From contig OZ059900.1 in the NCBI GenBank assembly GCA_964057225.1, positions 26,288,001-26,352,000 on the forward strand: DNA of 64,000 nt. Reading direction: 5' to 3'. The translations under genes and the position numbers were made by a program. Each line of letters opens with the position of its first letter. The first letter of the stretch is position 1. The notes beneath the pieces were generated by a model that did not search any database, was not told the DNA's origin, and saw only the letters and a program-made list of their open reading frames with translations. Shown here piece after piece: positions 6,497 to 45,457 of the stretch. The DNA is from Auanema rhodensis (lineage: Eukaryota; Animalia; Nematoda).

Positions 6497-6577
6497 TATA
6501 TATATATGTATATACAATAAGTATATACATTGCAAAATCTTGGCGCCACCATTTTAATAAGAGGGGTAGAGAGTGTT

Positions 6578-7294: not shown

Positions 7295-7320
7295 TATATA
7301 TTACTTATAGAGCGATATAA

Positions 7321-7982: not shown

Positions 7983-8534
7983 GCGACATTGAATCTTGCT
8001 TTGGAAGTTCACCAAGATGGGAAAAATACCTGGCGGAACCTCGCTGTAAAAAAGAACGCCAACAACTTTACACCATAGTCTATCAGAGAATTGAGTTACA
8101 TTGCTTTGAACTTCAGAATGATCAATAATAAAATAAACAGTTTTTCATAAGCATGTTATTATTCAACAGCAGAATAAAGAAAGTTTGATAGAATATGAAA
8201 TATTCTTGAATTCTTCTTTTTAATATGTAGTACATAGCAAACAATATTGTAATTGTGAAGACAGAAACATAAAAAATAACAATTTATTTTAAATTTCTTA
8301 AAAAACAAAAAACGTTCTGAAAAAAATCATTCATTGATAGAAACATGAAATTTGATTCAGAAACTGAAAGCTCATTTAGAAAAACAAAATAAGTATTTAG
8401 TTTAAAAACGAACGTTCAAATTCTTAAGACAAAACAATATTTCAACAGCTCAGTATGTAAACCTCTCCAGAATAACAAAAGGACATTTGTACAAGATAGG
8501 GATTGTTAAAGACATGTAAACGACAAATAAACCA

Positions 8535-16512: not shown

Positions 16513-16532
16513 TACAATTACAAATTTAAACA

Positions 16533-19675: not shown

Positions 19676-20072
19676 GATGGAGTTATAGGCAATGACTGTT
19701 TGTCAACTGGAAACAAAATTATTAGTTTTCTATACGAAAAAATAATTTAAATTATTGTCAAAAACAATTCTATACGAACAATGACAAAAAATTTTGATTT
19801 CTTCTCGCAATCAAAGGTGAAAGTTTCAACTCTCTCAAGTTTCTCCGAAAAAAAATTTTGTTAACACCTAATCAGTGTTTAGCAAAATTTTTTTTGTTTT
19901 TTCTCTTTTTTTTTTCACCAAAAATTTTATGAAAAAAAAAATTCAGAAAAAAATCGGAAAAACCCTATACGGGAGAGTTGTGACTAAATCACCAAGAGCT
20001 ATACGCTCAAAAATCGGTTAAGAAACTATACGTTTCCCTATTTAACAAAAAAACAATCAATCGAGCAGAGAA

Positions 20073-20087
20073 CCGGTTCGGCCCCCA
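20073..20087 (-). promoter_or_regulatory. tRNA-Pro primer binding site (copy 1)
   Basis: Reverse complement is TGGGGGCCGAACCGG, complementary to the nematode tRNA-Pro 3' end (...CCGGTTCGGCCC-CCA). Confidence 0.8.
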
Positions 20088-20364
20088 AGTCAAAAGACTG
20101 TATTGAAAAATCCAGATATGCATAAATCTATGCCAATTAACCTCTTAGTTAAATCTTCATGCATCTTTGAAATTATCTTGCTGCTTGTTAGCACTTCAAC
20201 ACCATTACTGTATACCCTAATCTAATCAGCACTCTCGACAATGCGGTTCTGATACTGTGAGAATATAACACTCTTCCGCTTAAACAAGAGTGCTGTATAT
20301 GAGATATGTGAATAAAGGTTTACTTTATCACCAAGCGCATGACATGAATCAATTTTTTCATACC

Positions 20365-21045
20365 TTTCGAAAGGGGGGTCCGGGGGTCACCCCCGGATCT
20401 CAAAGCTTATTTATATCGAGAAAACCTACGATATATAGGATCTATAACATGTTTTCAGTACTTTCGGAATGTACGAGAGAATAATAAGGTATATATTGTT
20501 ATGTGTAAAATATAATATTGTATATCTCAGCCTTTTTGGTAGTAATTAAAATATTCTGATTTGAGTATCTCTCTTTTATTATCGCATACGATTCCTGAAA
20601 TGAATGAATTGTGATAATCATACCACTCTTGAGATGATATATAGATTGTGGCCATACGAGTTTTGATGTATAACATTCTGATAATCATACCACTCTTAAG
20701 ATGATATATACATTGTGGCCATACGAGTTTTGATGTACAACATTCTGATAATCATACCACTCTTAAGATGATATATACATTGTGGCCATACCGCGTAACC
20801 ATGTGAACAGTAAATTGACTTTATAGTATTTGAATCAGAAGAAAGCGGGGGTGTGGGGGCGGCCAGCCCCCAATCTTAATTAAAGCATACGATTCCTGAA
20901 ATGAATGAATTGTGATACTAGAACCACACTTAAGATGATATACACATTGTGGCCATAGCGCGTAACCATGTGAACACTACATTTTCGTGATAGTATCTGA
21001 ACCAGAAGCAAGCGGGAGTGTGGGGGCGGCGAGCCACCACCATGT
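20365..21045. repeat. Repeat patch with 68-bp tandem units and GGGGGTGTGGGGGCGG...CCCCC hairpin motifs
   Basis: GATAATCATACCACTCTT at ~20612, 20680, 20748; duplicated block 20584/20885; G/C hairpin motifs at ~20372, 20846, 21012. Confidence 0.6.
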
Positions 21046-21060
21046 TTCTGAATCTCGCTT

Positions 21061-21098
21061 GCCTAAGCCTAAGCCTAAGCCTAAGCCTAAGCCTAAGC
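21061..21098 (-). repeat. Interstitial telomeric repeat (TTAGGC)6
   Basis: GCCTAA x6 joined to a truncated copy of the retrotransposon leader. Confidence 0.95.
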
Positions 21099-21207
21099 CC
21101 TATACGGGATAGTTGTGACTAAATCACCAAGAGCTATACGCTCAAAAATAGGTTAAGAAACTATACGTTTCCCTATTTAACAAAAAAACAATCAATCGAG
21201 CAGAGAA

Positions 21208-21222
21208 CCGGTTCGGCCCCCA
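21208..21222 (-). promoter_or_regulatory. tRNA-Pro primer binding site (copy 2)
   Basis: Same 15-mer; 19963-20217 is duplicated at 21098-21357. Confidence 0.8.
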
Positions 21223-21224
21223 AG

Positions 21225-22446
21225 TCAAAAGACTGTATTGAAAAATCCAGATATGCATAAATCTATGCCAATTAACCACTTAGTTAAATCTTCATGCATC
21301 TTTGAATTTATCTTGCTGCTTGTTAGCATTTCAACACCATTACTGTATACCCTATTTAAGAAAGTACTGCTCCTCCAACTTATGAGTGTCTTAGTTTTAT
21401 CAGTCATAAATCCTAAATCACCATAGACCCTGCACAGAAAATCAAAAAGTGTTCACTTTTATTAAGCAGTGTCTGGATTGTACCATCTCCCTTAGTGTGT
21501 AATTCTAGAGTAGCATCATCTATCATCACATTGACTTTGCATATATCAGATCCACTACTGATTTTAGCTCTCCTAGCACATCTAGATGTATATGCACATA
21601 TACATGAATGGATAATAGTGTCTAGTGAGCCAAACCATCCCTGTATTCCACCATTATTAAGTGTAGATATCATCCTTATACCCCTTCTATTGGTTACCAT
21701 CATTATCTTCTTGAAGAAATAACTAATTTCTCGGAATGGAGAGTACTCAAAAAGATCTAATATGATTTCTCTGGTTACATCATCACCAGACCAAGTCTCA
21801 CGAACTTTATTACCATATTTGCTGTTTTCACCTTAGGCGCTATATCTGATATTATTACCCATTCCCCTTCTGGCCTTATTAATCCATTACTAGTGAGTTC
21901 CTTAATGTCTCATCTGACTTGCTTCATAAATTTTTCATTAGACATAATAGGCCCTCTCACTATGGTATCCAGAAGTTCATTATTCCTGTGTCTGTGGGTT
22001 GGATCTATCTCCCTTGTAGCTTCTTCTATATTACTACTTATACGGGTAACATCATGTGCATCTAGATATGCAGTATCTGCATAATCTACCCACCTCAGAA
22101 GCTTCTTGAGGCTACATTCACCTAAGTCTTCATCAGGTATAGACACCTCAAGCCCTTGTAATAGTCTTTTCATCCAGGTCTTCTTCTTAACCTTATTATA
22201 GTTCTCAATATGAGGTGTAATGTCCCTGTCGTGGTATCCTTTGGTCTTTAAATGTCTTACCACAGCAACTAATAGATGCTCTTTCATGAACTTTATAAAT
22301 TCATCTCTAGTTTCCTGTTTAAATGGATTTCGAGAATTCATCTTAATATATGTGTTGACATGTAGGTCTTGTATACTACAGTCAGCTGTAGGTAATAAAT
22401 GGTATAGGTAACTAATACCGATCCTATGTCTCTCAGGAAATCCCAG
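21225..22446 (-). pseudogene. Endogenous RNA-virus RdRp fragment (left-arm copy)
   Basis: Reverse copy of ~33003-34320 with its own deletions; keeps a segment (DVTRISSN...NEKFM) missing from the right arm. Confidence 0.85.
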
Positions 22447-23009
22447 TATATTCTTAACAACAAATACTGGATGATTATCAACTACTTTTTGAATAATCAG
22501 AAATATTCTTCCAAAGTCATTTCTCAAAATACTCGAAACACAAAAAGATTTCCATTCTATGAAAATACATATGATATTTCTTAAAACTCCTCAGGTTGAT
22601 CACCATTATGAATTGACTTCAATTCTTCAACTTTTCGACAATATAATGGTAATTTGTTGTTGAATTCTAAGTAAACATTATAACAGTCATAGTTTTATTG
22701 AATTATCGCAAATTTAAACGAGTATTTTGTACTTCCTTGATGAACATCAATTTTTATAAACATCGCTCATTTGAAGACATATCAAAAACAACCAACTACA
22801 ATTTTCTCAATCGAGCAAGTGAAAAAAACGCTGAATATGTCACTCTTCCGGTAAGAATTTCACATATCATCACTTAATAACTAATTTGTGAATGTGATGT
22901 ATTCATTTGACCCACTCTTTTACAAAATTGAATCTATTATTTTGTATGAATATGTGATGTAGTCATTTGATTTCTTGAATAATCTCTAACGTATTTGAAA
23001 GTTATAGCC

Positions 23010-23276
23010 ATGAGATCTATGACTAAGCATAGGACTAAGTCTAAGCATGAGATCTATGACTGAGTATATGACTAATTCAAAGCATGAGATCTATGACTAA
23101 GCATATGACTAAGTCTAAGCATGAGATCTATGACTAAGCATATGACTTAGTCTAAGCATGAGATCTATGACTAAGCATATGACTAAGTCTAAGCATGTGA
23201 TCTATGACTAAGCATATGACTAAGTCTAAGAATGAGATGTATGACTAAGCATATGACTAAGCCTAAGCCTAAGCCT
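23010..23276 (-). repeat. 37-bp telomere-variant repeat ending in (GCCTAA)2-3
   Basis: Unit GACTAAGCATATGACTAAGTCTAAGCATGAGATCTAT; mirrored at 30731-30955. Confidence 0.92.
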
Positions 23277-24177
23277 GCAATGATTCCCTACAAGTTTTGC
23301 AGAGACGAATTGGTCTCATTAATACACTCTTTGGTGGAGTGCTCTCTCTCAGAATCTCCATCTGCTTCATTGGTGAATCTAAATTAAAGATTTAAAAAAT
23401 ACAAGTTAAGGTTCATACCAAAACTTGTAAAATTTGGAGCTGGTGTGGGTGGTCGTGGTACTTCAGGTTCTAGCGATTTGCGTGTAACAGTTGTCACATC
23501 AGCAAGTACAGCACGCTTCATTTCAGCTAAAAATCCAACTTTCTGAAAATCAAGACAAACTTGCAGAGAGGAGCAGTCTATGGCAATTGGCGAAGAGTGG
23601 CAAAAGATGGTGGAACGTCGGATCCTCGAATAGTTGGAGCTGAAATGTAAATGTAGCAAAATTGCCAACCTTTTATACGAAGACTTTTGTAAAGTACAAC
23701 CCATTGTGTTACAATCAAGTTTGCTGATGAAATTCTTTTATTAATTAGATTTTACAGCATATTTATGCAGATATACTCATCTCATCGACAGTTGCCAGCA
23801 GTTATCGCACTCTGAACCTGTAAACAATCTGCATATTAATTAGTTTTTACATCTCTTTAAACATTATTGTTTACCGTTTTTGCCATAAACAACAGTCATC
23901 TCTGTAAAACATTTAGGCTTTTTAAACTTTGCTTAATAGCTCATGTTTTTTTCATAGTTTATTAACCCTCGATATGCGTGGCGTTAAGTTCAGCGCAACT
24001 GTTCGTTAATCTTATTGTATTTACCTTCAATGTGTGCTCTATTTAGTTATTGTATTGTTATATTAGTAAAATAAAGTTTGAAACTATTCCATCTTTTATT
24101 ATAATTTGAAACTTTTACTTGTTACAATAAATATAATTAATAACAAATCGTAATTTCAAAAAATAATAATTTAATGT

Positions 24178-24325
24178 CGTTCTTATCGAATTAACCTTCG
24201 ATATGTGTTCCATTAAATTTTGTATTTCATATCGTTCTTATCGAATTAACCTTCGATATGTGTTCCATTGAATTTTGTATTTCATATGGTTCTTATCAAA
24301 TTAACTTTTGTGTTCCATTGAATTA
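24178..24325. repeat. ~55-bp tandem repeat, ~2.7 copies
   Basis: CGTTCTTATCGAATTAACCTTCGATATGTGTTCCATT repeated. Confidence 0.8.
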
Positions 24326-24932
24326 CCCATAACAAGTACAGTGAACAAAACGATATACATGCAAAAATTTTATTGTTCTTTGAAATTAAAGTAAAATAGA
24401 ACAAACACAATATAATAAAGTAATAAACAAAATGAGTGAACAAACATAATAAATAAACAAATATAATTAATAAATATAATAAATGAAAGAAGAATTATAT
24501 AAAATGTAAAATCAACTTTAAATATTTCAAATTTAAATAAAATTTAAATATTTTTAAATTTATATATTTTTTTCACTTGATATATTTAAAAATTAATTAA
24601 AATATATGCATACATTTGAAAAAGCATATTTGAATTTGATTTGAAAAAAAAGTACGGTGAACAAAACGATATACATGCAAAAATTTCTTGTTCTATTGTT
24701 CTTTAAAATTAAAATAAGATCGAACAAACACAATATAATAAAGTAATAAAGATGAGTTCGCCGAAGTCGGTGGTCGTCGGGGCCGAGGACCTCTCAAAGC
24801 CTTGGGGTGCCATGGCGTGGTACGCGGCGGAGCAGGCCGGGCCGGATGGGAGGGCCGAGGGGTCGCACTGAGTACCAGTGGTCGCGTGGGGAGGGGGGGG
24901 GTAACAAAGTAACTGCCCAGCGGATGAACGTT

Positions 24933-24986
24933 CGCGAAAAGAGCGTGAGCCCCTCACCTGCTTGCGGGGCTCACGCTCTTTTCGCG
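24933..24986. other. Perfect 21-bp-stem hairpin with 12-nt loop inside a GC-rich island (~24757-25035)
   Basis: CGCGAAAAGAGCGTGAGCCCC-tcacctgcttgc-GGGGCTCACGCTCTTTTCGCG. Confidence 0.9.
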
Positions 24987-27429
24987 GGGCGTTAGGAAGA
25001 CGGGTGAGGAGAGTTGGAAACCCCCGGCGCCGTAGAAATACTCCACATCTATGGATCTGAATAACTATGTAATCATATATAAAAAAATTACTTATTTCCC
25101 CATAGAAATGCAGAATTAGCCACGGTTATGTCATTCTGAATTTTTTTTTGAGTTCATCCAATGATCCATCAAGGCCCTATCAATATCGTTCTCATGTTTC
25201 ATAACGTAACACCTAACGAGACGACATTCAGAACTTGAATTAAAAATAATTAAAAGTAAGATAAATTAAAAACAAACAGTATCCATGTTCCACATAGCCC
25301 ATGAAATGTGTTGTTGAAGCTTGTTTAGTATATATTATATTTTTAGATGGCTAATGCAGAGAGTGGTGAGCTTTTAGAAGATCAGATAAAATCTCTGATT
25401 AATTCTTTGTCTGATGAGACAGTGTCGAGGAAACGCATATGGAGCATGGCTAACAAATGGCTGGAAGGATCACACACGAAGGTAAGTGAAACGAAAAAGA
25501 GAAAAAATGAAACAGATATGTTTTTCTGAGCCACCAGTGGGAGCAGCGGCTCTGGCCAGGAAGGATTCAAAAGGTAAATGCACTTCATTGTGTGAGCAAA
25601 GCGGTTATGTTGGATTCTGGATCTATAGTAAGTTTTTGGTTTTGGTCTGAGAAATTATTTGATTTTAGGATTATGTGTTCAGCTGCCTGCATTATTTCAT
25701 GGTGATAATTAGGTTTTTTCCCCGACTAGTGCCGTGTTGCTCCACGTTCTGGTACAATCCGTTACGATCGAATTAAAACGTAAGGAAATCTATGGCTACT
25801 AGACTTAGGAATGTTTTGGGTTTAGGAGAAAAAGGCAGGATCGTGGTAGGTGTCTCATGAAGTATTTAATGTGACGTATTTGTCATAGAGGACCAATTAT
25901 TTCAATGGAGTTATAACCACTACCTGTAACAGAGGGAAGTCCATGATTGATTTATCATAATTGATTAGATTCCTGTATCAGAGCTCCATATTCTGAAATG
26001 ACAACATATGTTAGAAAAATATATTTTACCTACCCTCCATTAGCTCTATTTTCTGTAGACTTTCATGGAACATATCCTTCGTAATGTTCTTCATGATTAA
26101 TACCAAATCCACGAGTTTCAGGATTGACGCAGAATGTTCAACGACACTCCAAGAAGAAGATAAGATAAATAGTTACCTACTTGCATGTTCCCTTTTTTTT
26201 TTTGCCTCCTTCGGAGCATCAACAGCCACAATTGTACCCTTATCCCTTTCAGTTTCCGCTTCAACATTGACGACTACAGCGTCTTGCAATTCCTGGCCCC
26301 CAGTATCGCTTCCTAAACTGGGTACACCAATATCCTGAAAAGAAAAAAATTTATGAAAAATGGGAATGAAAACAAAAAAACCTCCACAATGTGCTTAGGC
26401 ATCTTATTTTTGGTACAGCTTGGTTCAGCGGCCCTTTTACGGGTTGATGGGGGGCAACTGGAAGCAAACAATCTGTCTCATTAATAACTTGCGTACCGAA
26501 AAAATTCAGGAATTCCGTGTACGCGTCTTCCTGAGACTCAGGAAGCCGGTAGGTTTGCTCTAACAGCGCTTCCCATTTAGCCTCATCTAGAAAACAAAAA
26601 TAGCATAGTAAATGTTGGCGCCAAGATTGTGATGTGTTCATCAACAACAATTCAGCAATTAACAATTAAAAGTTGAAAGTTTATTTGAAATGATTTATTG
26701 AAACAAAAAATGGATGAAACTCTGTACGATACACAAATTTTTTAAAATTAGTTAAAGAATTAAAAATAAGTTAACCTTTTTTTTATTAATACGCCTTTTG
26801 ACTTTGAACTCCTCACAAAGATTAGCTAAAATATTCTCCGGTACCTTTCCGAAACAGAGATGCTCGTTTTGAACAAGATATGTTTTTTTATCTTTAGGAC
26901 ACTTTATAAAACAGCCTTTGGCATCCAATGTGAAACTTATGACCCTTTCGGGACACATAAACCAATTTTTTAGTGGACCGGAGACTATGTACACTTAACA
27001 TTCAATTTAACAAGGAGCATTCTCCTGATAGCGGGAGGATTTACGAAGAAAATTTTTTTCAATTACTTACAACATTGGTTGTTGTATCAAATTCTCTTGT
27101 CGAGTTGTCCACTTTATCCCTCTCTGTACCAGGAGTACACTGCAAAACTTTGAAATATGTCACAACATATATTTAATTATTACCTTAGCAACAGTTAAAA
27201 AACTTCGCGTAGTAGATCTTGAAGACGTCGTTTTCGTTTCAGATGAGCTGGAGTATGAATCGTTCTCCTCCTCTTCCAAACAAAACCTTTTGGGCATAAC
27301 GCCATTCGGTGAGAAATTGGATTTTATTCTCTATAAATAGATCAATGATCATAACATCAACGTTAATTTTATTATACCTTTTTTTCTAAAGGAATTAGCG
27401 GATGAGGAAGAAACGGCAGAAGCAGCCGG

Positions 27430-27520
27430 AAGTGGATACACCGTCAGGAGTGGATACATCGTCAGGAGTGGATATATCGTCAGGAGTGGATACATCGGCA
27501 GGAGTGGATACATCGTCAGA
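27430..27520. repeat. 18-bp minisatellite (CGTCAGGAGTGGATACAT) x~5
   Basis: Direct inspection; reads as D(D/V)STP repeats in ORF 27395..27658. Confidence 0.85.
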
Positions 27521-29355
27521 AACCGACCGAGTACTATCAGAAGCTAGCTGGGTAAACGAGTCTTCTACCTTGGGCAATTTGATGAACGATTCCATATTCA
27601 ACTTAAAACCTGTATGAGACCAATATAATTTTTTAAAAACATACCAGGGATTCGTCAATTTTTAGGAGCTTCAACACTAATAGCTCACTTTCATGGGTCT
27701 AATAGTTATAAATTGCAATATTATTGAATATGAATAAAAATCAAACGGATGTCTTGTTTAATCTTATTATCATAAATAATGATTGAGCGAGATGAAGAAA
27801 CTGGACGAAAAATGATTCTTTCCGAACATCTTTTTCTATCATGATGCTGAATTTTGAGTCACGTATAATGAAATTGCTGATCTTAAAAAATATATACAAT
27901 ATGTTATTTATCTATTAATGTTTAAAGTATGAACAACATCATACAACTATTTTGATTGCAGAAAACGAGACGGTTGGATTGTGTGATTGTAAACAATTTT
28001 GAAAAAATGTAATTGCATCTCGCTCATATGTTTATTTTTGGCAAAACCAGCAACATTTTTCATCATGAAAATCTGAAGTAAAATAAAATATAGTATAATA
28101 GTAACATATGTTCTCACACCGATGTACGTGTGCAAAAGATGCTGTTGTGCATGAATTGAGAAAACAATCTTGACGTATAACTCGAGTCATTTCTGTAAAA
28201 TTTTAAGAAGTAAAAACATATTAATAGAACATCTAGATATGAGTAAAGAGATATCTCGGTTTTTTTTCTCAAAATTGAAACATGTTGAAACATGAACATA
28301 AATTATTTTATTTTATATTAAATAAAAATAATTTTTGTTACACATGTTCATGGAATGGCTATAATCTTGATGTATAATGTAAAATACAAGATATGTGACA
28401 ATTACTACCTCATAAATTTATGGTTACTTTCTACATGCCGACAAACACTGCTGCCTTTTTTCGAATACATATATATGTTTATATATGTTCATGTATATTT
28501 ATGATAGACATGAAATATGACTACCTCATAAATAAGCGTTTTTTATGTGCCTACAAAGATTGCCATTCTTTGTTCGAATCATCATTTTTTTATTTATTTG
28601 TGCACAGTTACCCTATTTATTGTTTCTTTGAGTTATATAGTGATACTTTTATTGTTTAAAGCATTTGGATCGATTTTTTGTTGTGTGTCGTCATACAAAA
28701 TTTTGAATATTCTGTTTTTTCAAACTGTCATATTTTTTCCTTTATTTTTTGAGCATTCATGGCATTTTTTAAGTTTCAGATCAGTTTATGGTTTGTAAAA
28801 CTTAAAAATATCTAAATATAGTGGCAGGAAAATTAATGAAGTTCCACAGGCAATTGAACATGAATTCATAGAACACGCTAGTAATTTTCCATTGGTTTAC
28901 ATCAATGATCAAACGGTAAATTAATAAATTAATATATAGTTCTTATTTATATTTTTATTTGACGTTAATGAATCATATCAATTTAGATTGAAGAAATAGA
29001 TTCACAACCATTGTCTACTCAAAGTATCGAAAACAATAGTGATGGAGAAGAGAAATAAGTGGGTTCCACGTTATTATTTCGTGAAAATATAGTTTTTTTG
29101 AAAATTTATTTTTCTATTTATTCAGCTGATTCTTTTTTTCCATAATATTGTAATTGAAAAGGATGTTTTCGATTTTTTTCACAAAGTGTTGGAAACAAGA
29201 AGCGATTGCGGTGCATATAGTTGCGTTTTTAATCGAATAACCACCAACATGGAATTGCACAAACTACGTTCAAAACTAGATAAAAAGTCACATCTTATAA
29301 AAGGTTAGTAATTTGTTTTTATTCTCTCCGATATTGAGTATTGTTTACACTTAGG

Positions 29356-30007
29356 CAGACATGTCGCAGACTTGAGCCGTTGTTATGTCAATGCGTTGCT
29401 TTTTAACATACAGAACAACGGTTGGACAGTTGAAGACTGTAAAGATCTAATTAAATATGATGTTGCTTTGCGTCATATAGCTGAGCTGAGAAGTGCTTTT
29501 CAACGGGTCATTCCAAAAAAAGCAAGACGCAAAAATGTGCGTGCTTACGTTTTATACGGAGATACTCGTACAGGCAAATCATATTTTGCCAACTCATTCT
29601 TAGTTATAAAAAGTTTTTGATCAATAACATTTATTATTCGATTTGTTTTTCAGGAGATGATTGTTATACAGTTGCAGCGGATAATTCTGCATATTTTGAG
29701 AGTGAGTTATCCTGCATGTTTGAAGAGTAATAAATTCGTAATTGTCGTTTCAGAATATAATGATGAAGACTCAATTGTGATAGAAGAAGTAGTTCAATTC
29801 GGACAACGTGGTTATATGTCATCACGACCACACTTACTTCTATGTTATGATGGAGTATGTCGGTATGTGTTTTTTGTGAGATGCTCAATAAAACTAATTT
29901 TTTTAAGCTTGAATGTGAAATTCTCAAGTTGCACTATATATGCAACCAAAATTTTTTTACTTTCGAACTTTCATCCAAGAGAATGGTTTCCGGGAGATCC
30001 AGAGACG
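29356..30007 (+). pseudogene. Intron-containing CRESS-DNA-virus Rep-like SF3 helicase domain
   Basis: Walker A YVLYGDTRTGKS; after splicing 29702-29753 (GTGAGT..TTTCAG) AYFEKYNDEDSIVIEE (Walker B); after splicing 29863-29907 RLNVKFSS...KIFLLSNFHPREWF (motif C). No clear HUH domain seen. Confidence 0.7.
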
Positions 30008-30730
30008 GTGATAGATTTTTATTATTTAAGCATTGCATTCAATTCCTCTTGTTGAAATAACAGACTTCTATAATTTCAACTTCTAGAGATCACTTCTATC
30101 GTTCTCTCGTTCTTGATTTTTTGAGTTTTTGATAAGCTGGATGTAACCTGAACTTGTGTTCGTTAGTTACGAATAAGTTCTATATACTTGAGCTTGGGTT
30201 TAATAGTTACGAAAAAGTTTGATATACCTAAACTAGAGTTTGATAGTTGGGTTTTTGTTTTTCAGTGATTTTCTGATTGGTTATACTACTTATATTCCAC
30301 ATCTCATTCGTTTGTCAACTTTTTTTCGCGAGATACAATGAAAAAACACCAACATTTACATTTCAGCTCCAACTATCCGAGGATCCGACGTTCCACCATC
30401 TTTTGCCACTCTTCGCCAATTGCCATAGACTGCTCCTCTCTGCAAGTTTGTCTTGATTTTCAGAAAGTTGGATTTTTAGCGGAAATGAAGCGTGCTGTAC
30501 TTGCTGATGTGACAACTGTTACACGCAAATTGTTAGAACCTGAAGTACCACGACCACCCACACCAGCTCCAAATTTCACAAGTTTTGGTATGAACCTTAA
30601 CTTGTATTTTTTAAATCTTTAATTTAGATTCACCAATAAAGCAGATGGAGATTCTGAGAGAGAGCACTCCACCAAAGAGTGTATTAATGAGACCAATTTG
30701 TCTCTGCAAAACTTGTAGGGAATCATTGCA

Positions 30731-30955
30731 GGCTTAGGCTTAGTCATATGCTTAGTCATACATCTCATTCTTGGACTTAGTCATATGCTTAGTCATAGAT
30801 CACATGCTTAGACTTAGTCATATGCTTAGTCATAGATCTCATGCTTAGACTAAGTCATATGCTTAGTCATAGATCTCATGCTTAGACTTAGTCATATGCT
30901 TAGTCATAGATCTCATGCTTTGAATTAGTCATATGCTTAGTCATAGATCTCATGG
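30731..30955 (+). repeat. (TTAGGC) seed followed by 37-bp telomere-variant repeat
   Basis: GCAGGCTTAGGCTTAG then TCATATGCTTAG... Confidence 0.92.
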
Positions 30956-31840
30956 CTATAACTTTCAAATACGTTAGAGATCATTCAAGAAATCAAATGA
31001 CTACATCACATATTCTTACAAAATAATAGATTCAATTTTGTAAAAGAGTGGGTCAAATGAATACATCACATTCACAAATTAGTTATTAAGTGATGATATG
31101 TGAAATTCTTACCGGAAGAGTGACATATTCAGCGTTTTTTTCACTTGCTCGATTGAGAAAATTGTAGTTGGTTGTTTTTGATATGTCTTCAAATGAGCGA
31201 TGTTTATAAAAATTGATGTTCATCAAGGAAGTACAAAATACCCGTTTAAATTTGCGATAATTCAATAAAACTATGACTGTTATAATGTTTACTTAGAATT
31301 CAACAACAAATTACCATTATATTGTCAAAAAGTTAAAGAATTGAAGTCAATTCATAATGGTGATCAACCTGAGGAGTTTTAAAAAATATCATATGTATTT
31401 TCATAGAATGGAAATCTTTTTGTGTTTCGAGTATTTTGAGAAATGACTTTGGAAGAATATTTCTGATCATTCAAAAAGTAGTTGATAATCATCCACTATT
31501 TGTTGTTAAGAATAAAGCATTCGATAATACTATAAGCAAACATTTTTTTTAAACTTTTCTGTTTATTCAAAAAATAGTTATTATTGAACTACTAATAGTT
31601 GTCAAAAATGAAGTACTCGATCATTAAATCTTGTTGCTCATATGTTGGGATATCATCAATACGTGACATTTCGCAAAAGGAATGGTAATTAAACCAAAGA
31701 TTTTTAAACTCTTAGCTATTTTATGCTACTCTAGAATTACACACTAAGGGAGATGGTACAATCCAGACACTGCTTAATAAAAGTGAACACTTTTTGATTT
31801 TCTAAAAAATCTCTGGTTTAATTACCATTCCTTTTGCGAG

Positions 31841-34320
31841 ATGTCACGTATTGATGATATCCCAACATATGAGCAACAAGATTTGATGATCATGCTCAGT
31901 TCTTTTTTGCTTTGCAATGATAAGAAAGGTTTTGATAAGGTTCAATCATTGTTATCTAACATTAATGGGAACAAACTTAAATGGGATAAAGAACCTTATT
32001 ATCTTGGCCTAACGGGTGAGAAGCTACAACTAATAGAGGTAGGCGATGGGTTTAAAGAGGATGTATCAGATATACACTGGGAAGGCTTCCTCAATTCAAT
32101 GGGCTACTTAGATTCAAAACATGACAATGGTAGATATGAATCATCTAAATTTGTATCATTCTTGACTAAGGAAATTATTCGCAAACATAAAATCAAAGAG
32201 ATATATAGTGATGAAGATGCTAGGTACAGGTTACTATATAGATCATATTTCTCTAAGGATTTTGAATCAGAAATCAATACAGATCAGGGAGGAAAAGCTA
32301 AGGGAAGTTTCATGACATCTCTCATACAGTTGCCTATGTGTAACTTAAGTATGCCAGGTATAAGTAAATGGATTGATGAATTCTTGACAAACCCATTGTT
32401 AGATGATGATAATAGACGCTTATACTCAGTTACAACTATGTGGAAGAAAATCCATAACTGTGGTTTAAGTGCTAATCAACGAGAGGTGCTTAAGAACAGC
32501 TATTTATTTGATCCCTCAGTGGAATTTGACAAGCTAGTTGACCTAATGGAAGTTACTGGAAAACTTAGATTACCTAAAAGTCTTAAGTTATATAAGAGTG
32601 GGAAAGTGATGTTACTTGTAGATGTTACAGGACATGAAATGTTTATAATAACACAATCCTCAGGAAATATATTATATAACTATACAACCTCTGCTTTTAA
32701 TTGGAGATTCTATTCAAGAATGGACAGGGGGATAGGCCTTTGTGGAAGAATTAGAGATCCTATTGAAAACTACCATGACATTGGCTTTGAGTGGATTAAG
32801 TCTGCAATGGAATATTGCAAGATATTCAACAGAAGGGTTTGTGTTATTACGAAGTGCATGAAAATTTCCAGCTCTGTTGCTCAGCTAACAATAAACAAAG
32901 GAAGTGAACTAGCTGAAACTGGCTCTGAGGCTAAGAAAAGAGTTTTAGAACAAGAAATCTTTGAGTTAATGCCTGACTTTACTCCATGGCACTGCATACT
33001 TCAGGGATTTCCTGAGAGGAATAGGATCGGTATTAGTTACCTATACCATTTATTACCTACAGCTGACTGTAGTATACAAGACCTACATGTCAACACATAT
33101 ATTAAGATGAATTCTCAAAACCCATTTAAACAGGAAACTAAAGATGAATTTATAAAGTTCATGAAAGGGCATCTATTAGTTGCTGTGGTAAGACATTTAA
33201 AGACCAAAGGATACCACGACAGGGACATTACACCTCATATTGAGAACTATAATAAGGTTAAGAAGAAGACCTGGATGAAAAGACTATTACAAGGGCTTGA
33301 GGTGTCTATACCTGATGAAGACTTAGGTGAATGTAGCCTCAAGAAGCTTCTGAGGTGGGTAGATTATGCAGATACTGCATATCTAGATGCACATGAAGTC
33401 AAGCAAGTCAGATTAGACATTAAGGAACTCACTAGTAATGGATTAATAAGGCCAGAAGGGGAATGGGTAGTAATATCAGAGATAGCGGCCAAAGCTGAAA
33501 ACAGCAAATATGGTAATAAAGTTCGTGAGACTTGGTCTGGTGATGATGTAACCAGAGAAATCTTGTCTGAAATTGACAGGAATGTTTCATTCCTTATGCC
33601 AATAATTCCAGGTGCAGCTATGAAAAGACCAGTTCCTTCGATTTCACAAGCATTAAGATCATCATCTAGAGAAGGATTTCTAGGGAATAAAGATGGGAAA
33701 GTTATTTTATTCAGTAGCCAAGATGTATCTTCGTGGTCACCTTCCCAGGACAGGAAATACATGTGCCAGTTATATCAAATCATATTAGATCTTTTTGAGT
33801 ACTCTCCATTCCAAGAAATTAGTTATTTCTTCAAGAAGATAATGATGGTGACCAATAGAAGGGGTATAAGGATGATATCTACACTTAATAATGGTGGAAT
33901 ACAGGGATGGTTTGGCTCACTAGACACTATTATCCATTCATGTATATGTGCATATACATCTAGATGTGCTAGGAGAGCTAAAATCAGTAGTGGATCTGAT
34001 ATATGCAAAGTCAATGTGATGATAGATGATGCTACTCTAGAATTACACACTAAGGGAGATGGTACAATCCAGACACTGCTTAATAAAAGTGAACACTTTT
34101 TGATTTTCTGTGCAGGGTCTATGGTGATTTAGGATTTATGACTGATAAAACTAAGACACTCATAAGTTGGAGGAGCAGTACTTTCTTAAATAGGGTATAC
34201 AGTAATGGTGTTGAAATGCTAACAAGCAGCAAGATAATTTCAAAGATGCATGAAGATTCAACTAAGAGGTTAATTGGCATAGATTTATGCATATCTGGAT
34301 TTTTCAATACAGTCTTTTGA
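31841..34320 (+). pseudogene. Endogenous negative-strand RNA virus RdRp (qinvirus/Muvirales-like), 763-aa ORF plus a frameshifted tail
   Basis: AKAENSK..KVRETWS (motif F), QDVSSWSP (A), GGIQGW...DT..HS (B), MIDD (C), frameshifted YGDLGFMTDKTKT (D), TFLN (E); intronless; 3'-truncated. Confidence 0.82.
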
Positions 34321-34322
34321 CT

Positions 34323-34337
34323 TGGGGGCCGAACCGG
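34323..34337 (+). promoter_or_regulatory. tRNA-Pro primer binding site (copy 3)
   Basis: TGGGGGCCGAACCGG, followed by a ~400 bp leader and the gag ATG at 34734. Confidence 0.8.
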
Positions 34338-34733
34338 TTCTCTGCTCGATTGATTGTTTTTTTGTTAAATAGGGAAACGTATAGTTTCTTAACCTATTTT
34401 TGAGCGTATAGCTCTTGGTGATTTAGTCACAACTCTCCCGTATAGGGTTTTTCCGATTTTTTTCTGAATTTTTTTTTTCATAAAATTTTTTGTGAAAAAA
34501 AAAGAGGAAAAACAAAAAAAATTTTGCTAAACACTGATTAGGTGTTAACAAAATTTTTTTTCGGAGAAACTTGAGAGAGTTGAAACTTTCACCTTTGATT
34601 TCGAGAAGAAATCAAAATTTTTTGTCATTGTTCGTATAGAATTTTTTTTGACAATAATTTAAATTATTTTTTCGTATAGAAAACTAATAATTTTATTTCC
34701 AGTTGACAAACAGTCATTGCCTATATCTCCATC

Positions 34734-35530
34734 ATGAGTGAGGAACTGGATATCGAAATGAACGAAGAACGAAATTTTGATTCTTTTAATTTTAATTATT
34801 ACCTGAGGTTGCGGCTTATAAGGGTGGATCGTATAGTGAATTCGTTGATTTCACAGAACGATTTAACTATAAATACCCAGATGATGTTTTTTCTCAACGT
34901 GAGAAAAAACTTTTATTCATCAATAAACTCTAAGGCGAGATCAGAAACCGCTATAGAGAGTTACCTGAAGCCATAAAGCAAAGTTCCTCAGATGTCATAG
35001 TGAACAGTTTACGTATAGAGTCAACCGTTTCACAAAGGCAGGGAAGAATGCAGGCTACTGAAAACTTGAGAAGTTTGAAATGGAATAGATCCCAGTCGTT
35101 AGTAAATTACTGCGATGAGTTAGAAAAACTAACTCAACTGGCTAATCCAGATTAAATTCTTAGTTTATTATCGTTTGAAAGAGCTAATAAACTGTACCAA
35201 GAACTTTGTAACTGTTCTTGTGGAGTTTCCATCCTTGAAAAAATAAAAGATGAGGAGGACGAAGAAATTTACGAAAAAGTAAAACAAATCGCCCTCAGAT
35301 GTGAACGAAATAAGTTAACTCGTTCAATCAATCAATCCAATGAATCCGAGCAGAAACAAAACTTGAGCCGGAAACATTATCCACATATCTCCGATGAAAG
35401 AAAAGTGAGAAACACCAATAATAATGAAATTAATTGTGTGTACTGTAATAAAAAAGGACATACGGCAAACGTATGTTTTAAAAGACAAAATAAAAGAATA
35501 GAGAATAAAAGTAGACTTAACACTCCTCGA
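34734..35530 (+). pseudogene. gag remnant (right arm; large deletion, stop codons)
   Basis: MSEELD start, CVYCNKKGHTANVC; mirrors 18411-19675. Confidence 0.75.
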
Positions 35531-38335
35531 GAACCACCCAGCGTGGTCGTTAGATCGCTCACATTCCCACATTTGGAAAATATTAATGAGCCAATGCATG
35601 TTGTCATGCCGCGGCTATTTAATGAGTTCCTTGATCGGTGCCTTGCTGAAAGTGGTGTGCCCGATAAACAAAAAGCACTATTTTGTTTATCAATAGAGCA
35701 CCCATCCTTTGAAAAGGGATCCATATTTATGGATTTCCGTAGAAGGGAGCATTTGGATGGCGTTGTCATCATGAATGCTATCAGCAAGGTGCAGCAATCA
35801 AAGCGAGAGGCTGTAATTAGCCAGGCAATGAATATTGAAATGTATGTGTTTGATGAGAGACCAGTGATACACATTGCCTGGCTAGAGCAGCAGTTGTGGG
35901 AATGTGGAAAGCCGATGAAGAGGCAGCAGAAGATGTAATTGAGAAGCGGAGGATTCAAAATCTTCGTCGCAACTACATCTTGTTGCCAAATCAACCACAT
36001 CATATCAATTTATTAAATAGGTGTGGTGTTTCTGTACATTTACCAAATTATAATTTGAACCATTTAAATATTATTGCAAGTTGTAATACAGACTATAAGT
36101 TTGTAGTATACGCTAGGCCACCTGGACAGCGTATCTTTAATGAAACGGCTAGCAAAGTGGTAACACTAGGCTACCGAAATAATCATTATGACTGTATTAC
36201 AACTTGTAGTAGATCACAGCTTTTCGATTGTATTATATGCCAACACTGCAAATTATCTTACAAAACAGTGTTGCATAGATGTAAAGCCAAGTGTAAGAAA
36301 TGCCACACCTTAAAATGTAATTCGATGGAAAATGTGGTTGAAAATAGCATAAGATGTGATAGTTGTAGAGTTTTGTTTAAAACTTGTCATTGCTTTGACA
36401 GGCATATTAGAAAAACATGTCAAATGTTTAAGGTAATTTAAAAAATATATATAAAATTTAACAAGACTAAATTCAGACATGTGAAAACTGTGATCATTAT
36501 CACAGAGTACGTGCTGATAGACCACACAATTGCAATGAGAAATTTTGCAAAAAGTGTGAGCAAACTAAGCCTGAAGATCATTCTTGTTGTTGGGTACCAC
36601 CTAACGACAAGAAGAAGGATCAGATAAAAAAGAGGCAAGAAAAATACAAGGTTTGTAATTAACATCTTTACAAGTGTAATACTTACTTGTTTAAGATTAT
36701 ATTTTATGATTTTGAAACGGTTGTGTTAAAAAACGGTACAAATGTTCATGAATATGCAGATGAACAATGGCCCAATATGGTTGTGTATAACAAATTTTGT
36801 GAAAGTTGTATAGATGCCAATTCAAGCGAAAAATGCACAACCAAGGAGGGCCATTTTGGGTATCAACAAGGTGATAGTGAATGGTCTGTAACAGATCGTT
36901 TTCTTGATTGGTTACTCAACTCTGTTGAGAATGATAATGCAATTTTGATAGCGCATAATGGTTCACGCTTTGACATACATTTCTTGGTGTCTAGGCTGAT
37001 AAACCATGGAATATATCCTGATCCAATTTTAAATGGGACCAAGATTATAAGCATGGTTGGCAGTAAACTATTTTTTACAAATTGCCGCACTTGTGCAGTC
37101 AAAAGTAAAAATGTAGCATGTGAGCACCAAAATGATGTAAATGCTCGAAAGCTGCATCTAACCGTGACACATGTTGAGCTCGAGTGTGCCATACAACATG
37201 GCTATAAAGTGCTTCATGTGCATGAGGTGTGGCACTGGGAAGAATGGCAGCAAGGCGGCCTGTTTAAAGAGTTTGTACAAAAGTACATAAAAATTAAACA
37301 AGAGGCGTCGGGCTGGCCAAAGATGACAGAGGAAGAAAAGGTATGTTTTCATAAAAGTATCACATTAAATAGAATTTTACAGATGATATATCTCCAAGAA
37401 CACGAGGTGAACACTGGTGTTGCTCTGGAGAGCAATAAAATTGAAAAAAATGCTGCCATGCGTAGCATTGCCAAACTGCAGCTAAATAGGTTTGTAAACT
37501 TTTTAAAACAATACATTACGAATTTGCTTATAGTGTCTGTGGTAAAATGGGTCAAAGACCTGATAAAGCCCAAACCAAGATTATTGGTGTTGAGGACCCA
37601 GAAATTCGTAGGATCATTACTGATCCTGCAAGGGAACTCACTGGGTTCAAAATTGTGGATAATGTTTCGTACTGCACAACAGTACCAGAGTATTCACATT
37701 TGGCACCACCGCATTTTACAAATGTAGCTATTGCGGCCTATACAACCGCTCATGCAAGGCTACTATTGTATAAGGCAATGGAGAAAAATGGAAAGAATTT
37801 AGTGTATACAGGTAATTTCATACTTTGTATACAATTTAAACATACATCATTTAGACACGGATTCACTAATTTATCAAAGATGCCTAGATGAGCCTGATTC
37901 AATTGAGGATATGAAGGGTGAATGGTTAGGTAAACTAACCTCTGAAATACCCGATGGTTGGTCAATGACCAAGTTTGTGTCACCAGCGGCAAAAGTTTAT
38001 AGTTATAAACTTGTAAATGCAGCTGGTGATGTAAAATATGTAACAAAGGCAAAGAGAGTGGTAAGTACGAGCTTTGACTTTTCAAATAATTTTATAATTT
38101 TCAGACGTTGTACCACACGGCAGCGTCAGTGGTAAACTTTGAAAGTATGGAGCGACTGGTTCGCGGACTCGTTATGGATGGAGAAAAATTGGTTTTAAAA
38201 ACCAATACAACCTTGTTAAAGAGGCAACTCGGTGCCACATCCACAATGGATATGACAAAAAGTACTAAAGTCGTAATGGATAAACTTTGTTATCTACAAG
38301 ATTATAGTACTTTACCCTACGGTTATTGTGTTTAA
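35531..38335 (+). pseudogene. Maverick pPolB with spliceosomal introns, internally deleted
   Basis: YDFETV, IAHNGSRFD, KIKQEASGWP; splicing 37490-37533 restores KLQLNSVCGKMGQR and splicing 37812-37854 restores YTDTDS; TLPYGY at the end; ExoIII/motif A region missing. Confidence 0.9.
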
Positions 38336-44018: not shown

Positions 44019-44911
44019 TTGGGGACAAAGAATATTGCCTGATCAGAAGGAACTGTTCATCTCTGTTAAGGCTGCAAAGCCCTCGAACATGAACGTGGCT
44101 ATGCGAAGGCATTCATGCCTACAACTTGTAGACTCAGATTTGCTACAAACTATGAATGTGCGAAGAGCGTTTTCGCTAGCAAGCGATATGCTTATTGATG
44201 TCGCATCGAATTGTGACGCCATGAGACGTCTCCAGGCCCGCTCGCAGGGGCATTCTACAGCGGTACAGGTTATATCTTTGTAACAGTTAACAGTTCAATA
44301 ATTCAGGTTAGATTCAAAGAGTATGTATATTACAACCGTGATACCGCTCTTGTTGGGTTTAAGAACGCTCTCATCATGATGAGCAGAGATGTCCAGCTGG
44401 ACACATACAATGATGTTATAGATTTCATAAGAAATCGCAATACTCTCCCTGAGGAGAAAGAAGAAGTTGTCCCTCTTGAAGGTCAAGCGGACACTGACAT
44501 GTGCACTATTTGCACCCTACTAACCACCGACCGAGTCATGTAACAACACTTATCACTACTATTCAATTAAATAAATTTCCAGAGTATCACCATGTTTCCA
44601 TGGTTTCTGTAACGACTGCTTCCTGAGACATTATGACATATCGTATGTCAAGAAAAATGCTCGAAATCTTTTGTGCATGATAGTGAGAACCTATTTTATA
44701 TTTGAATTTAAAACAAATTATTTAGTGCCGAACAGTTGTCACATGCATTGGTAAGGATTTCAACTATGAATCCAGAATCCTTTTGTACAAAAATAATAAA
44801 AATAGAAATATTAACCCGAGCACACCTATTAACATTCCTGAAATTAACCAGTCTCTCTCAACCAAAAGAAGAAATAATGTTACAATGGATGATTTTGTTA
44901 CCATCTCATGA
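44019..44911 (+). CDS. 3' exons of a C3HC4 RING-finger gene (upstream exons probably in 42494-44018)
   Basis: Splicing 44540-44582 and 44683-44725 gives CTIC...PCFHGFCNDC...LCMICRT; stop TGA at 44909-44911. Confidence 0.72.
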
Positions 44912-45457
44912 GAAGAATATTTTTGTTTTAATATTTTTATCTTTTTTTTATATTTTTGAATGTGCATAGCATATATGAATGAATGAATGTTTTTTTGTGA
45001 AGAAGAGATGAAAATGTTTTATTTAAAATGTTGTTACACTATGTTTAAGCATTATTCAGTGATTCGAAGTGTCCCCGGGACAGTTTGTTCAGTGATTCGA
45101 AGTGTCCCCGGGACAGTTTGTTCAGTGACGCCGGGACGATTCACCATCACAAAACTATTAAAAGTGATGGATTCGAATATGAAGTAAGATATGGTTAAGC
45201 CTAAGCCCGATATAACCAATTATGAAGAAGAGTGGAACGATTGAATCCATCACATATTCATTAAATGTGATGGATTCGATTATATATATTAATATGGGAA
45301 TATATATATATATATAATATAATATAATAAATATAATATATATATATACTATATATATATAATATAATATAATATAATATACTTTTTATTATTATATACA
45401 TATATACAATAAAAAATACTAATCATTATATATAGAAGGTTATACAATGCATTACAT

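Follow-up and report, generated by a model that had tools for sequence, protein, structure and literature searches.

A long reading frame with polymerase motifs, lying among the repeats of a host genome, raises the question of whether it is a copy of an RNA virus gene, which virus it came from, and whether it still has a function. We addressed this in a stretch of 64,000 nt, referred to here as the window. Positions 31805-34306 very probably hold, in DNA form, the 5′-most ~2.5 kb of the L (polymerase) gene of a qinvirus-like negative-strand RNA virus, likely made by reverse transcription in the germline and likely surviving as a young, non-functional fossil.

Reading Frame and Polymerase Motifs

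The core of the locus is an uninterrupted frame with its ATG at 31841 and its stop codon at 34130-34132:

31841..34132, + strand: 763-codon ORF and stop codon (BLASTP, hhalign, hmmsearch, phmmer, invariant columns, fold model)

Counted stop-to-stop from 31787, the same 763-residue ORF spans 781 codons. It ranks third in length among the six-frame open frames of the window, where runs without a stop average 14.6 codons. Up to residue ~740, the protein corresponds to a qinvirus-like L, from its N-terminal domain through motifs F, A, B, and C of the RdRp; the final ~23 residues are read in the wrong frame. Along the ORF, the motifs read KAENSKYGNKVRETWS, SQDVSSWSP, GGIQGW, and MIDDA, the latter being motif C at residues 727-731. 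The initial annotation had described a 763-residue frame with these four motifs in order, and all of them are found, on invariant columns. The polymerase residues that are invariant over 60 aligned sequences are all present in the ORF, IDD of motif C included; the columns hit by its motifs are K551, E553, K556, R562, D628, W632, S633, G689, D729, and D730. At columns conserved in at least 90% of 28 viral rows, the element scores 38 of 42, with exogenous rows ranging from 36 of 43 to 41 of 45. The N-terminus of the ORF, MSRIDDIPTY, fits the MARVFxxPRY conserved in its clade, and the signature MxRVxxxPxY is common to the element and its relatives. The ORF begins at the authentic L start codon.

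Homology and Predicted Fold

BLASTP aligned residues 1-741 of the ORF with residues 1-781 of the Xinzhou nematode virus 3 L (202 bits, E 1e-57, 24% identity). With hhalign, the ORF matched a profile built from six qin-like L sequences over 673 columns from residue 1 (probability 99.95%, E 1.9e-38), and hmmsearch with the same profile against the six-frame window reached E 3.6e-72. Against 1.84 billion representatives, phmmer returned 127 matches at E <= 1e-3 (best E 3.9e-56), the majority of which are L-sized and many of which derive from 5.6-6.3-kb contigs. The best matches in these BLASTP and profile comparisons, which the initial annotation had proposed, are the negative-strand L proteins of named qinviruses. 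Named matches comprise Xinzhou nematode virus 3, Hubei qinvirus-like virus 1, Beihai sesarmid crab virus 4, Wenzhou qinvirus-like virus 2, and Zootermopsis nevadensis qinvirus 1. Identity to any relative is just 24-26% over the full aligned length, indicating that the source virus is unsampled. A search for homologues at protein lengths near that of the ORF found none, a word-based search among longer proteins returned P0002 alone and missed Xinzhou nematode virus 3, and a PDB sequence search with the single ORF gave no match.

At motif C, IDD is carried by 89 of the 95 relatives that are ungapped there (131 aligned rows). This agrees with the earlier claim that IDD marks the Qinviridae, and the accessible text of PMC9927876 likewise states it as a qinvirus trait.

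Predicted structure offers a comparison at greater evolutionary distance. The single-sequence AlphaFold model of the ORF was unusable (pLDDT 33.7), and the model made with a 60-row alignment reached pLDDT 85 and pTM 0.87, with residues 741-763 below pLDDT 50. In the PDB, this model matches L proteins of Mononegavirales best (E ~1e-10, TMq 0.5-0.59), and the predicted fold of residues 1-740 corresponds to the N-terminal and RdRp domains in the L structures of bornavirus (9n0u), hPIV3 (8kdb), measles (9dus), RSV (8sny), and VSV (5a22). The qin-like profile also matches Mononegavirales L by sequence (E 3.9e-8). In contrast, the identity between these proteins and the element is 9-13%, and the element is devoid of the capping, connector, and methyltransferase parts. 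The motif C of mononegaviruses is GDN, whereas that of the element is IDD.

Phylogenetic Placement

In the phylogeny proposed with the initial annotation, the element nests among named qinviruses. In the careful tree of 29 rows, it groups with Xinzhou nematode virus 3 and the unnamed P0016, P0017, and P0018 in a clade of five rows (support 99/98). The enclosing clade (100/100) adds Beihai sesarmid crab virus 4, Wuhan insect virus 15, Hubei qinvirus-like virus 1, and Wenzhou qinvirus-like virus 1. In a careful tree of 25 rows, the element is sister to Xinzhou nematode virus 3 (88/93). The trees are midpoint-rooted, without Yueviridae, Aspiviridae, or Mononegavirales as outgroup, so the probable position inside Qinviridae rests on the nesting among named qinviruses and on the midpoint root. 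No terminal branch is longer than that of the element (2.4-3.4 changes per column), and its amino-acid composition is odd; treekit warned that two long branches meet, those of the element and P0018.

The source virus was likely nearest to Xinzhou nematode virus 3, and its host was likely a nematode. The L of this virus (YP_009345119; Qinviridae) is collinear with the element from residue 1 through the RdRp motifs, and SQDVSSWSP and MIDDA are identical in the element, Xinzhou nematode virus 3, P0016, P0017, and P0018. The element differs from this group in its 24-26% identity, in covering ~800 of ~1,880 codons with one frameshift, and, unlike Xinzhou nematode virus 3, in being DNA within host repeats. 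A nematode host is backed only indirectly, through the (TTAGGC)n arrays of the window, a 12-nt SL1 match, and the nematode association of the nearest relatives.

Frameshift and 3′ End

Viral-L homology is carried by frame 2 to ~34061 and taken over by frame 1 from ~34096 (tblastn, hmmsearch, alignment), which places the break in the T-runs at ~34090-34105. The continuation in frame 1, DFLCRVYGDLGF...FLNRVY, aligns with FLCSIYDSLGF...FLNRVF of Xinzhou nematode virus 3.

34090..34105, + strand: frameshift in T-runs, common to both arms of the inverted duplication (tblastn, hmmsearch, alignment, ungapped arm alignment)
34096..34306, + strand: L continuation in the other frame, after motif C, profile columns 737-798, up to the viral end (hmmsearch E 4.6e-15, tblastn, alignment)
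34307..34706, no strand assigned: multi-copy host repeat adjoining the viral 3′ end (read-contig depth rise, loose ends)

Positions 33777-34450 and 21768-21095 align without gaps at 99%, with the frameshift in both arms, and Logan contigs show 0 differences from the window across it. The frameshift had been placed near 34115 and described as shared by the arms; the sharing holds, and the break itself lies ~10-25 nt earlier. Viral homology ends somewhere in 34282-34306, short of the end coordinate of 34320 given before, and the repeat occupies the sequence from 34307. At this position, depth rises and loose contig ends appear in runs X1, X2, X6, and X9; the repeat at 34307..34706 has a copy in the left arm only.

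The element thus stops at about residue 800 of an L of ~1,850-1,880 residues, i.e., at 43% of its length. The remaining ~1,000 codons were not found in the window, in which hmmsearch detected no ORF matching profile columns >798 at E < 1. According to the ICTV profile (PMC10721934), the L of qinvirids also bears a PRNTase capping domain downstream of the RdRp; the element ends at profile column ~798.

5′ Leader and Palindrome

A discontinuity at 31804/31805 delimits a short leader upstream of the start codon, and it is adjoined by both an inverted and a direct copy of parts of the element:

31805..31840, + strand: 36-nt leader 5′ of the L start codon (discontinuity at 31804/31805)
31619..31705, − strand: inverted copy of 31805-31891 (leader and first 17 codons), 84/87 identical
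31723..31803, + strand: exact 81-nt direct copy of 34029-34109 (downstream of motif C, frameshift site included)

The direct copy sits in the loop of the 5′ palindrome and is also identical to 21436-21516 of the left arm. The initial annotation had regarded the ~35 nt before the ATG as a possible viral UTR; the discontinuity is real and gives a leader of 36 nt, the whole of which need not be viral. Most exogenous relatives have much longer 5′ UTRs, of 80-330 nt, and that of Xinzhou nematode virus 3 measures 132 nt.

Within the leader, GGTTTAATTACC at 31815-31826 equals the first 12 nt of nematode SL1. This 12-mer is confined to the leader and its inverted duplicate; none of the 47 exogenous contigs contains it. 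An Rfam search yielded rRNA fragments alone, with no SL RNA gene, and a tRNA search found none. It is unlikely that the leader preserves the start of a viral L mRNA bearing the first 12 nt of SL1. In such a case, a qinvirus transcript would have gained host spliced-leader sequence in a worm cell, through leader capture or through template switching by the polymerase or a reverse transcriptase. If true, the SL1 leader would document, at the molecular level, that the nematode itself was infected, along with a 5′-end strategy not described for qinviruses.

Two other sources of the 12-mer were set aside. Cap-snatching is at odds with the 10 further bases that precede the 12-mer in the direct and inverted copies, and with the PRNTase assigned to qinvirids (PMC10721934). 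A retrocopy of a trans-spliced transcript is at odds with the presence of just 12 of 22 SL1 bases, which are not terminal.

Genomic Integration and Inverted Duplication

The locus is found in nine runs from three studies, in which the run type "DNA" is a guessed label; five of the nine were compared to the window as Logan contigs. Contigs of X1 and X2 bridge 31618/31619 and 34306/34307 with 0 differences, and in both window and contigs the viral sequence is continuous with host DNA at its two ends. With host repeats joined to the locus and its recurrence across the runs, the earlier claim of an endogenous element stands: the viral element is real, endogenous, and likely young, and its kind is already known. 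Compared to the virus it is incomplete, with its 3′ truncation, its one frameshift, and a degraded paralogue.

The surroundings consist of satellites, transposons, and telomere-type repeats. The window holds (TTAGGC)n arrays (20 18-mer matches, against 0 in shuffles), Tc3-type HTH and mariner ORFs, and three RT ORFs; a search with the 1,239-aa RT ORF gave generic RVT_1 clusters only. The downstream neighbor of the element is a DNA-polymerase-B element rather than a retroelement, and PHROGs returned DNA-polymerase matches only for the neighboring ORFs.

Within a large inverted duplication, the element occupies the right arm; a spacer (23655-30351) separates this from the left arm (16532-23654), which carries a second, badly degraded L copy in inverted orientation at 19960-22444:

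30352..38251, no strand assigned: right arm of the large inverted duplication (blocks 95-99% identical to the left arm)
21095..22444, − strand: degraded second copy, left arm (arm alignments, tblastn, hmmsearch)
19960..20219, − strand: extra copy of 34191-34450, i.e., the last ~115 nt of viral sequence plus repeat (arm alignment; hmmsearch 20093-20221, E 0.0031)

The left copy is without the counterparts of 31515-33003 (a 1,489-nt deletion) and 33563-33776 (a 214-nt deletion), and it displays a 124-nt insert at 21925-22048 together with a 1-nt deletion. An 875-nt insert at 20220-21094, ending in (TTAGGC)6.5, parts the extra copy from the rest. Logan contigs contain both the full form and the deleted left-arm form, the latter (joint 31514 to 33004) in runs X1, X5, and X6. 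In ungapped blocks, 3 synonymous and 9 non-synonymous changes separate the arms. After its formation, the locus was copied by inverted duplication, followed by decay of the left copy through two deletions and two inserts.

Origin and Fate of the Element

The proposed origin is that viral RNA was reverse-transcribed in the germline, presumably by the reverse transcriptase of a host retroelement. The 5′ palindrome and its central 81-nt templated insert may then be scars of fold-back and end-joining. Several observations speak against an RT-mediated origin: neither a poly(A) nor a target-site duplication was seen at the element, the downstream neighbor is no retroelement, and LINE-made retrocopies are usually truncated the other way round, whereas this copy is 5′-complete and 3′-truncated.

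We infer that the element encodes no working polymerase, since the frame is lost before motifs D and E and the larger part of L is absent. It also appears to evolve neutrally, as suggested by the 3:9 ratio of synonymous to non-synonymous arm differences, which is a small count. Under simulated random substitution, the ORF stayed open in 27% of the runs at 1% divergence, in 8% at 2%, and in 0.25% at 5%. Selection, too, would predict an intact 763-codon frame.

Alternative Explanations

One alternative, an exogenous RNA virus or its cDNA mis-assembled into host DNA, draws on the presence of qin-like viruses in nematode transcriptomes, as given in the accessible parts of PMC12770441 and PMC11445058. 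It is close to refuted: the locus holds only 43% of L, with a frameshift, and exists as two diverged copies with differing deletions. Contigs of four independent runs join the element to host repeats on both sides, and the X1 depth of 13.8 in the single-copy part is about half of the 20-30 in the two-copy part. A second alternative is a viral source outside Qinviridae proper, in some other mononega-like lineage of Haploviricotina, whether yue-like, aspi-like, or unclassified. The lack of outgroups in the trees and the very long terminal branch leave room for this, as do the Pfam results (no family for the ORF, a weak match of its relatives to PF00946) and a "yue-like" virus also reported with IDD in the accessible text of PMC9927876. 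We nevertheless consider such an origin highly improbable. The virus-named relatives are all qinviruses, qinvirus-like, or placed with them by the trees (Xinzhou nematode virus 3, Beihai sesarmid crab virus 4, Wuhan insect virus 15), the remaining looked-up rows being unnamed or "hypothetical protein". The well-supported Xinzhou nematode virus 3 clade lies within the fully supported clade of classified qinviruses, and the N-terminal signature is shared.

The two other alternatives grant the viral origin and differ in the fate of the copy. A domesticated host gene, in which a truncated L is selected, e.g., as a dominant-negative inhibitor of viral polymerase, would account for a frame of 763 codons amid far shorter stop-free runs, for the complete set of invariant catalytic residues, and for the retention of 38 of 42 conserved columns. 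However, a frame evolving neutrally would still be open with a likelihood of 8-27% at 1-2% divergence, and the arm differences are compatible with neutrality. The protein would moreover end in 23 out-of-frame residues and be encoded amid satellites, transposons, and telomere-type repeats, making domestication very unlikely. Alternatively, the inverted copies could form a hairpin locus, in which read-through transcription would yield ~1.2 kb of dsRNA of L and feed the RNAi of the worm as a heritable defense against related qinviruses. The viral segments 33004-34306 and 22444-21095 are indeed inverted, 96-99% identical in blocks, and ~10.5 kb apart. Neither a transcript nor small RNA of the locus was seen. 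The runs listed with the locus include no RNA run, and three small runs guessed to be RNA yielded no contig of it, blanks that give no evidence on expression either way. However, the left copy is decaying, though selection on a hairpin should slow decay, and the duplication covers ~7-8 kb of mostly non-viral repeats and therefore looks like a by-product of rearrangement. We regard a defensive hairpin as unlikely. Such a role would be compatible with the protein itself being a fossil.

Significance for Qinviruses and Their Hosts

An RNA-virus polymerase in a nematode genome and in a transposon context has a parallel in the nodavirus-like RdRp element of Bursaphelenchus xylophilus (PMC5177903). 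According to the accessible text of that report, the element there derives from a positive-strand family, and expression and retrotransposon capture are reported for it, which are not shown here. Our literature search turned up no nematode genome reported to carry an element derived from a qinvirus L; the supplements of PMC12770441, PMC11445058, PMC11512250, and the preprint 10.64898/2025.12.02.691819 may list such elements.

The initial annotation had expected germline integration to be direct evidence that such viruses infect this nematode lineage. The element does provide direct genomic evidence, and the host link as such is not new. Nematodes are already listed in the ICTV profile of the qinviruses (PMC10721934). 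The accessible text of PMC12770441 also links qin-like viruses to nematodes and groups Xinzhou nematode virus 3 with those of Ditylenchus and Globodera. Globodera is also reported to contain virus-derived small RNAs directed against a related virus. The fossil copy of L thus adds no new host range.

Because nearly all known qinviruses come from metatranscriptomes, their real hosts are mostly a matter of guesswork. Here, the L of such a virus persists in germline DNA as a long and barely decayed copy, which constitutes physical evidence of a host link and points to viral RNA of the Xinzhou nematode virus 3 lineage having once been present in host germline cells. With a best identity of just 26%, the element can serve as a probe for the still unsampled exogenous virus. 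Orthologous loci in related species, if they exist, would set a minimum age for the association.

Identification of a qinvirus-like L protein

The 763-aa ORF claimed in the initial annotation was confirmed, running from an ATG at 31841 to a stop at 34130-34132 and spanning 781 codons from stop to stop. With stop-free runs averaging 14.6 codons over the six frames of the window, it ranks third in length, exceeded only by two retrotransposon ORFs. The RdRp motifs follow each other in the order claimed, and their residues are invariant columns across 60 aligned sequences, with K551, E553, K556, R562, D628, W632, S633, G689, D729 and D730 kept by the element. At motif C, 95 of the 131 relatives aligned to the core are ungapped (36 are gapped or partial), displaying IDD in 89 cases, MDD in 2 and VDD in 1, with 3 misaligned. 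Together with the portion of PMC9927876 that presents IDD as a qinvirus trait, this count upholds the earlier view of IDD as a hallmark of Qinviridae.

As a single sequence, the ORF found no match in Pfam or the PDB, nor in an initial word-based homologue search. Extension of the word-based search to longer proteins yielded one match, P0002 (1,671 aa, on a 5.6-kb contig; E 9.8e-17), which has named qinviruses among its relatives. Alignment by hhalign to a profile of six L proteins, P0002 and its relatives, covers ORF residues 1-736 (probability 99.95%, E 1.9e-38), and the same profile recovers the ORF from the six-frame window at E 3.6e-72. A phmmer search run exhaustively over 1.84 billion representatives returned 127 matches at E <= 1e-3, of which 86 reach 1e-10 or lower and 8 reach 1e-30 or lower, mostly L-sized and headed by the proteins P0016 (E 3.9e-56), P0017 and P0008, the last being the L protein of Xinzhou nematode virus 3. 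By BLASTP, ORF residues 1-741 align end to end with residues 1-781 of the latter at 24% identity (E 1e-57), and both share SQDVSSWSP and MIDDA. The best matches in the BLASTP and HMM comparison with viral RdRps, proposed at the outset, are hence L proteins of qinviruses.

AlphaFold, supplied with a 60-row alignment, models the ORF product at pLDDT 85 and pTM 0.87, with values below 50 restricted to the linker 532-539 and residues 741-763, the 23-residue out-of-frame tail. Foldseek ranks Mononegavirales L proteins on top (E ~1e-10, TMq 0.5-0.59), and this ranking of the predicted fold agrees with the ICTV description of the qinvirid L as mononega-like (PMC10721934).

Phylogenetic placement

Three midpoint-rooted trees without outgroup were built from the first 1,000-1,050 residues. 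The quick tree contains 38 rows (the element, the relatives P0002, P0004, P0005 and P0006, and 33 of 47 exogenous qin-like loci), omitting 14 fragmentary loci as well as P0003 and P0007, duplicates of loci L004 and L031. It places Xinzhou nematode virus 3 as sister of the element (SH-aLRT 97), as does a careful 25-row tree with 13 near-duplicate or short rows removed (88/93). In a careful 29-row tree, with 18 rows removed, nine top phmmer matches added and P0021 omitted, the element, Xinzhou nematode virus 3, P0016, P0017 and P0018 form a five-row clade (99/98). The element is the longest branch of the tree and has an odd composition, and according to a treekit warning it meets the long branch of P0018. 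The five-row clade is nested in a 100/100 clade with Beihai sesarmid crab virus 4, Wuhan insect virus 15, Hubei qinvirus-like virus 1 and Wenzhou qinvirus-like virus 1. The phylogeny called for initially thus groups the element with Xinzhou nematode virus 3 among named qinviruses, under a midpoint root without outgroup. A passage of PMC12770441 assigns this virus and qin-like viruses of Ditylenchus and Globodera to a "nematode-infecting clade".

Extent of the viral sequence and its 5' end

Among the 47 exogenous qin-like contigs (IMG/VR), 33 have an N-terminus in which the conserved MARVFxxPRY or a variant of it can be recognised. That of the element reads MSRIDDIPTY, and by this resemblance the ORF starts at the authentic L start codon. 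The frame breaks after motif C; the break is shared by both arms as annotated but lies in T-runs at ~34090-34105 rather than near 34115. Past it, a different frame carries L homology over profile columns 737-798 (E 4.6e-15), with a clear alignment to Xinzhou nematode virus 3. The viral match stops between 34282 and 34306, short of the 34320 first proposed. A multi-copy host repeat begins at 34307, the point where Logan depth jumps and where contigs start that differ in their left flank. No ORF of the window matches profile columns past 798 at E < 1, and the window yielded nothing of L beyond residue ~800. The element holds ~43% of L, which according to the ICTV profile also bears a PRNTase capping domain (PMC10721934); its product cannot be a working polymerase.

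The 5' end comprises:
31805-31840 (+), leader before the L start codon
31619-31891, small palindrome with 87-nt arms, 84/87 identical

Here, 31619-31705 is an inverted copy of 31805-31891, and the 99-nt loop consists of 17 nt, an exact 81-nt copy of 34029-34109 and 1 nt. The frameshift site lies within this 81-nt copy, which was therefore made after the frameshift or from the same defective template. The palindrome would have arisen by fold-back duplication, followed by insertion of templated sequence at its centre, which fits the setting of satellites, rDNA fragments, transposons and (TTAGGC)n arrays. The ~35 nt before the ATG, suggested as a possible viral UTR, do form a discrete 36-nt leader. 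In most exogenous contigs the 5' UTR is much longer, at 80-330 nt.

The leader contains GGTTTAATTACC at 31815-31826 (+), repeated at 31684-31695 (-) in the inverted duplicate and at no other window site. It is identical to the initial 12 nt of SL1, the nematode spliced leader, a 22-mer that occurs in 45 nematode papers. The 12-mer may stem from a template switch onto SL1-bearing host RNA or may have arisen by chance. By shuffling, ~3e-6 exact matches are expected per 36-nt stretch. The 12-mer occurs in 0 of the 47 exogenous contigs and, within two mismatches, nowhere in the L segment of Xinzhou nematode virus 3. Cap-snatching is an unlikely source, because ten bases precede the 12-mer in both the direct and inverted copies and qinvirids probably make their mRNA caps themselves (PMC10721934).

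Integration, second copy and age

The element lies in one arm of a large inverted duplication:
30352-38251, right arm, holding the ORF
16532-23654, left arm

The left viral copy lacks 31515-33003 (the N-terminal half) and 33563-33776, and carries a 124-nt insert, a 1-nt deletion and an 875-nt insert flanked by duplicated 260 bp. A (TTAGGC)n array at 21061-21099 closes the 875-nt insert. The frameshift is common to both copies and is therefore older than the duplication. In four runs, Logan contigs show 0 differences from the right copy; three of these runs also contain the left-arm deletion joint, and both outer junctions of the element are bridged. The part found only in the right arm has roughly half the depth of the shared part. 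The locus is present in nine runs from three studies, presumably of DNA.

At columns at least 90% conserved among 28 viral rows, the element keeps 38/42, within the exogenous range (36/43 to 41/45). Within ungapped blocks, 12 coding differences separate the arms. Of these, 3 are synonymous and 9 non-synonymous, the pattern expected in the absence of selection. In simulations of random substitution, the share of runs that retain the open ORF falls from 53% at 0.5% divergence to 27% at 1%, 8% at 2% and 0.25% at 5%; given these survival rates, youth alone would explain the open frame.

Surrounding DNA

Transposon remains fill the whole window, and no host gene stands out among them:
1-5100, satellite of 167-168-bp units, at least 29 copies, two alternating subfamilies
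5305-6300 (-), mariner/Mos1-type transposase
6466-7317 (+), DDE_3 fragment
8445-8936 (-), Tc3-type HTH ORF
14907-16115 (-), non-LTR reverse transcriptase
16651-19702 (-) and 34707-37888 (+), frameshifted ORFs of protein-primed DNA polymerase B (PF03175, E 1.2e-10)
44272-45095 / 45848-46671, 824-nt inverted repeat, 99% complementary, 752 nt between arms
49550-53266 (+), long reverse-transcriptase ORF, 1,239 aa
54442-57972 (+), long reverse-transcriptase ORF, 1,177 aa
58361-58975 (+), 28S rRNA fragment (Rfam LSU 2392-3002), after the 1,177-aa ORF
60468-63860, (TTAGGC)n arrays with a 37-bp tandem repeat interspersed, towards the window end

A Cys-rich and CCHC-like region precedes the DNA polymerase B ORFs, which are multi-copy by Logan depth and likely represent a Maverick/Polinton-like element adjoining the viral fossil in both arms. 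The 1,177-aa ORF and the 28S rRNA fragment are, by analogy, reminiscent of rDNA-specific R2-type elements. An unassigned 392-aa ORF (46657-47832) adjoins the 824-nt inverted repeat.

Origin and implications

The (TTAGGC)n arrays (20 18-mer matches against 0 in shuffles) consist of the nematode telomere hexamer and suggest a subtelomeric or healed-break region. Along with the SL1 12-mer and the nematode-associated nearest relatives, they lend indirect support to a nematode host. The likely route is that L RNA was reverse-transcribed by a host retroelement enzyme and then end-joined. Three RT ORFs lie in the window, and neither poly(A) nor a target-site duplication was seen at the element. LINE-made copies are not usually complete at the 5' end and truncated at the 3' end, a shape that could here reflect template switch or later loss. 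By their arrangement, the inverted viral copies might possibly serve as an RNAi trigger.

Polymerase fossils of RNA viruses are known from nematodes, such as the nodavirus-like element of Bursaphelenchus covered in part of PMC5177903, and so are nematode-associated qinviruses (PMC10721934; PMC11445058; a section of PMC12770441). In the literature passages covered, we found no report of a qinvirus L-derived element in a nematode genome. In a table row of PMC12770441, the best match of a qin-like RNA2 is a genome protein of Nippostrongylus brasiliensis. The row hints at N-gene fossils elsewhere, and this protein may itself be one, derived from a qinvirus and so far unrecognised in another nematode.
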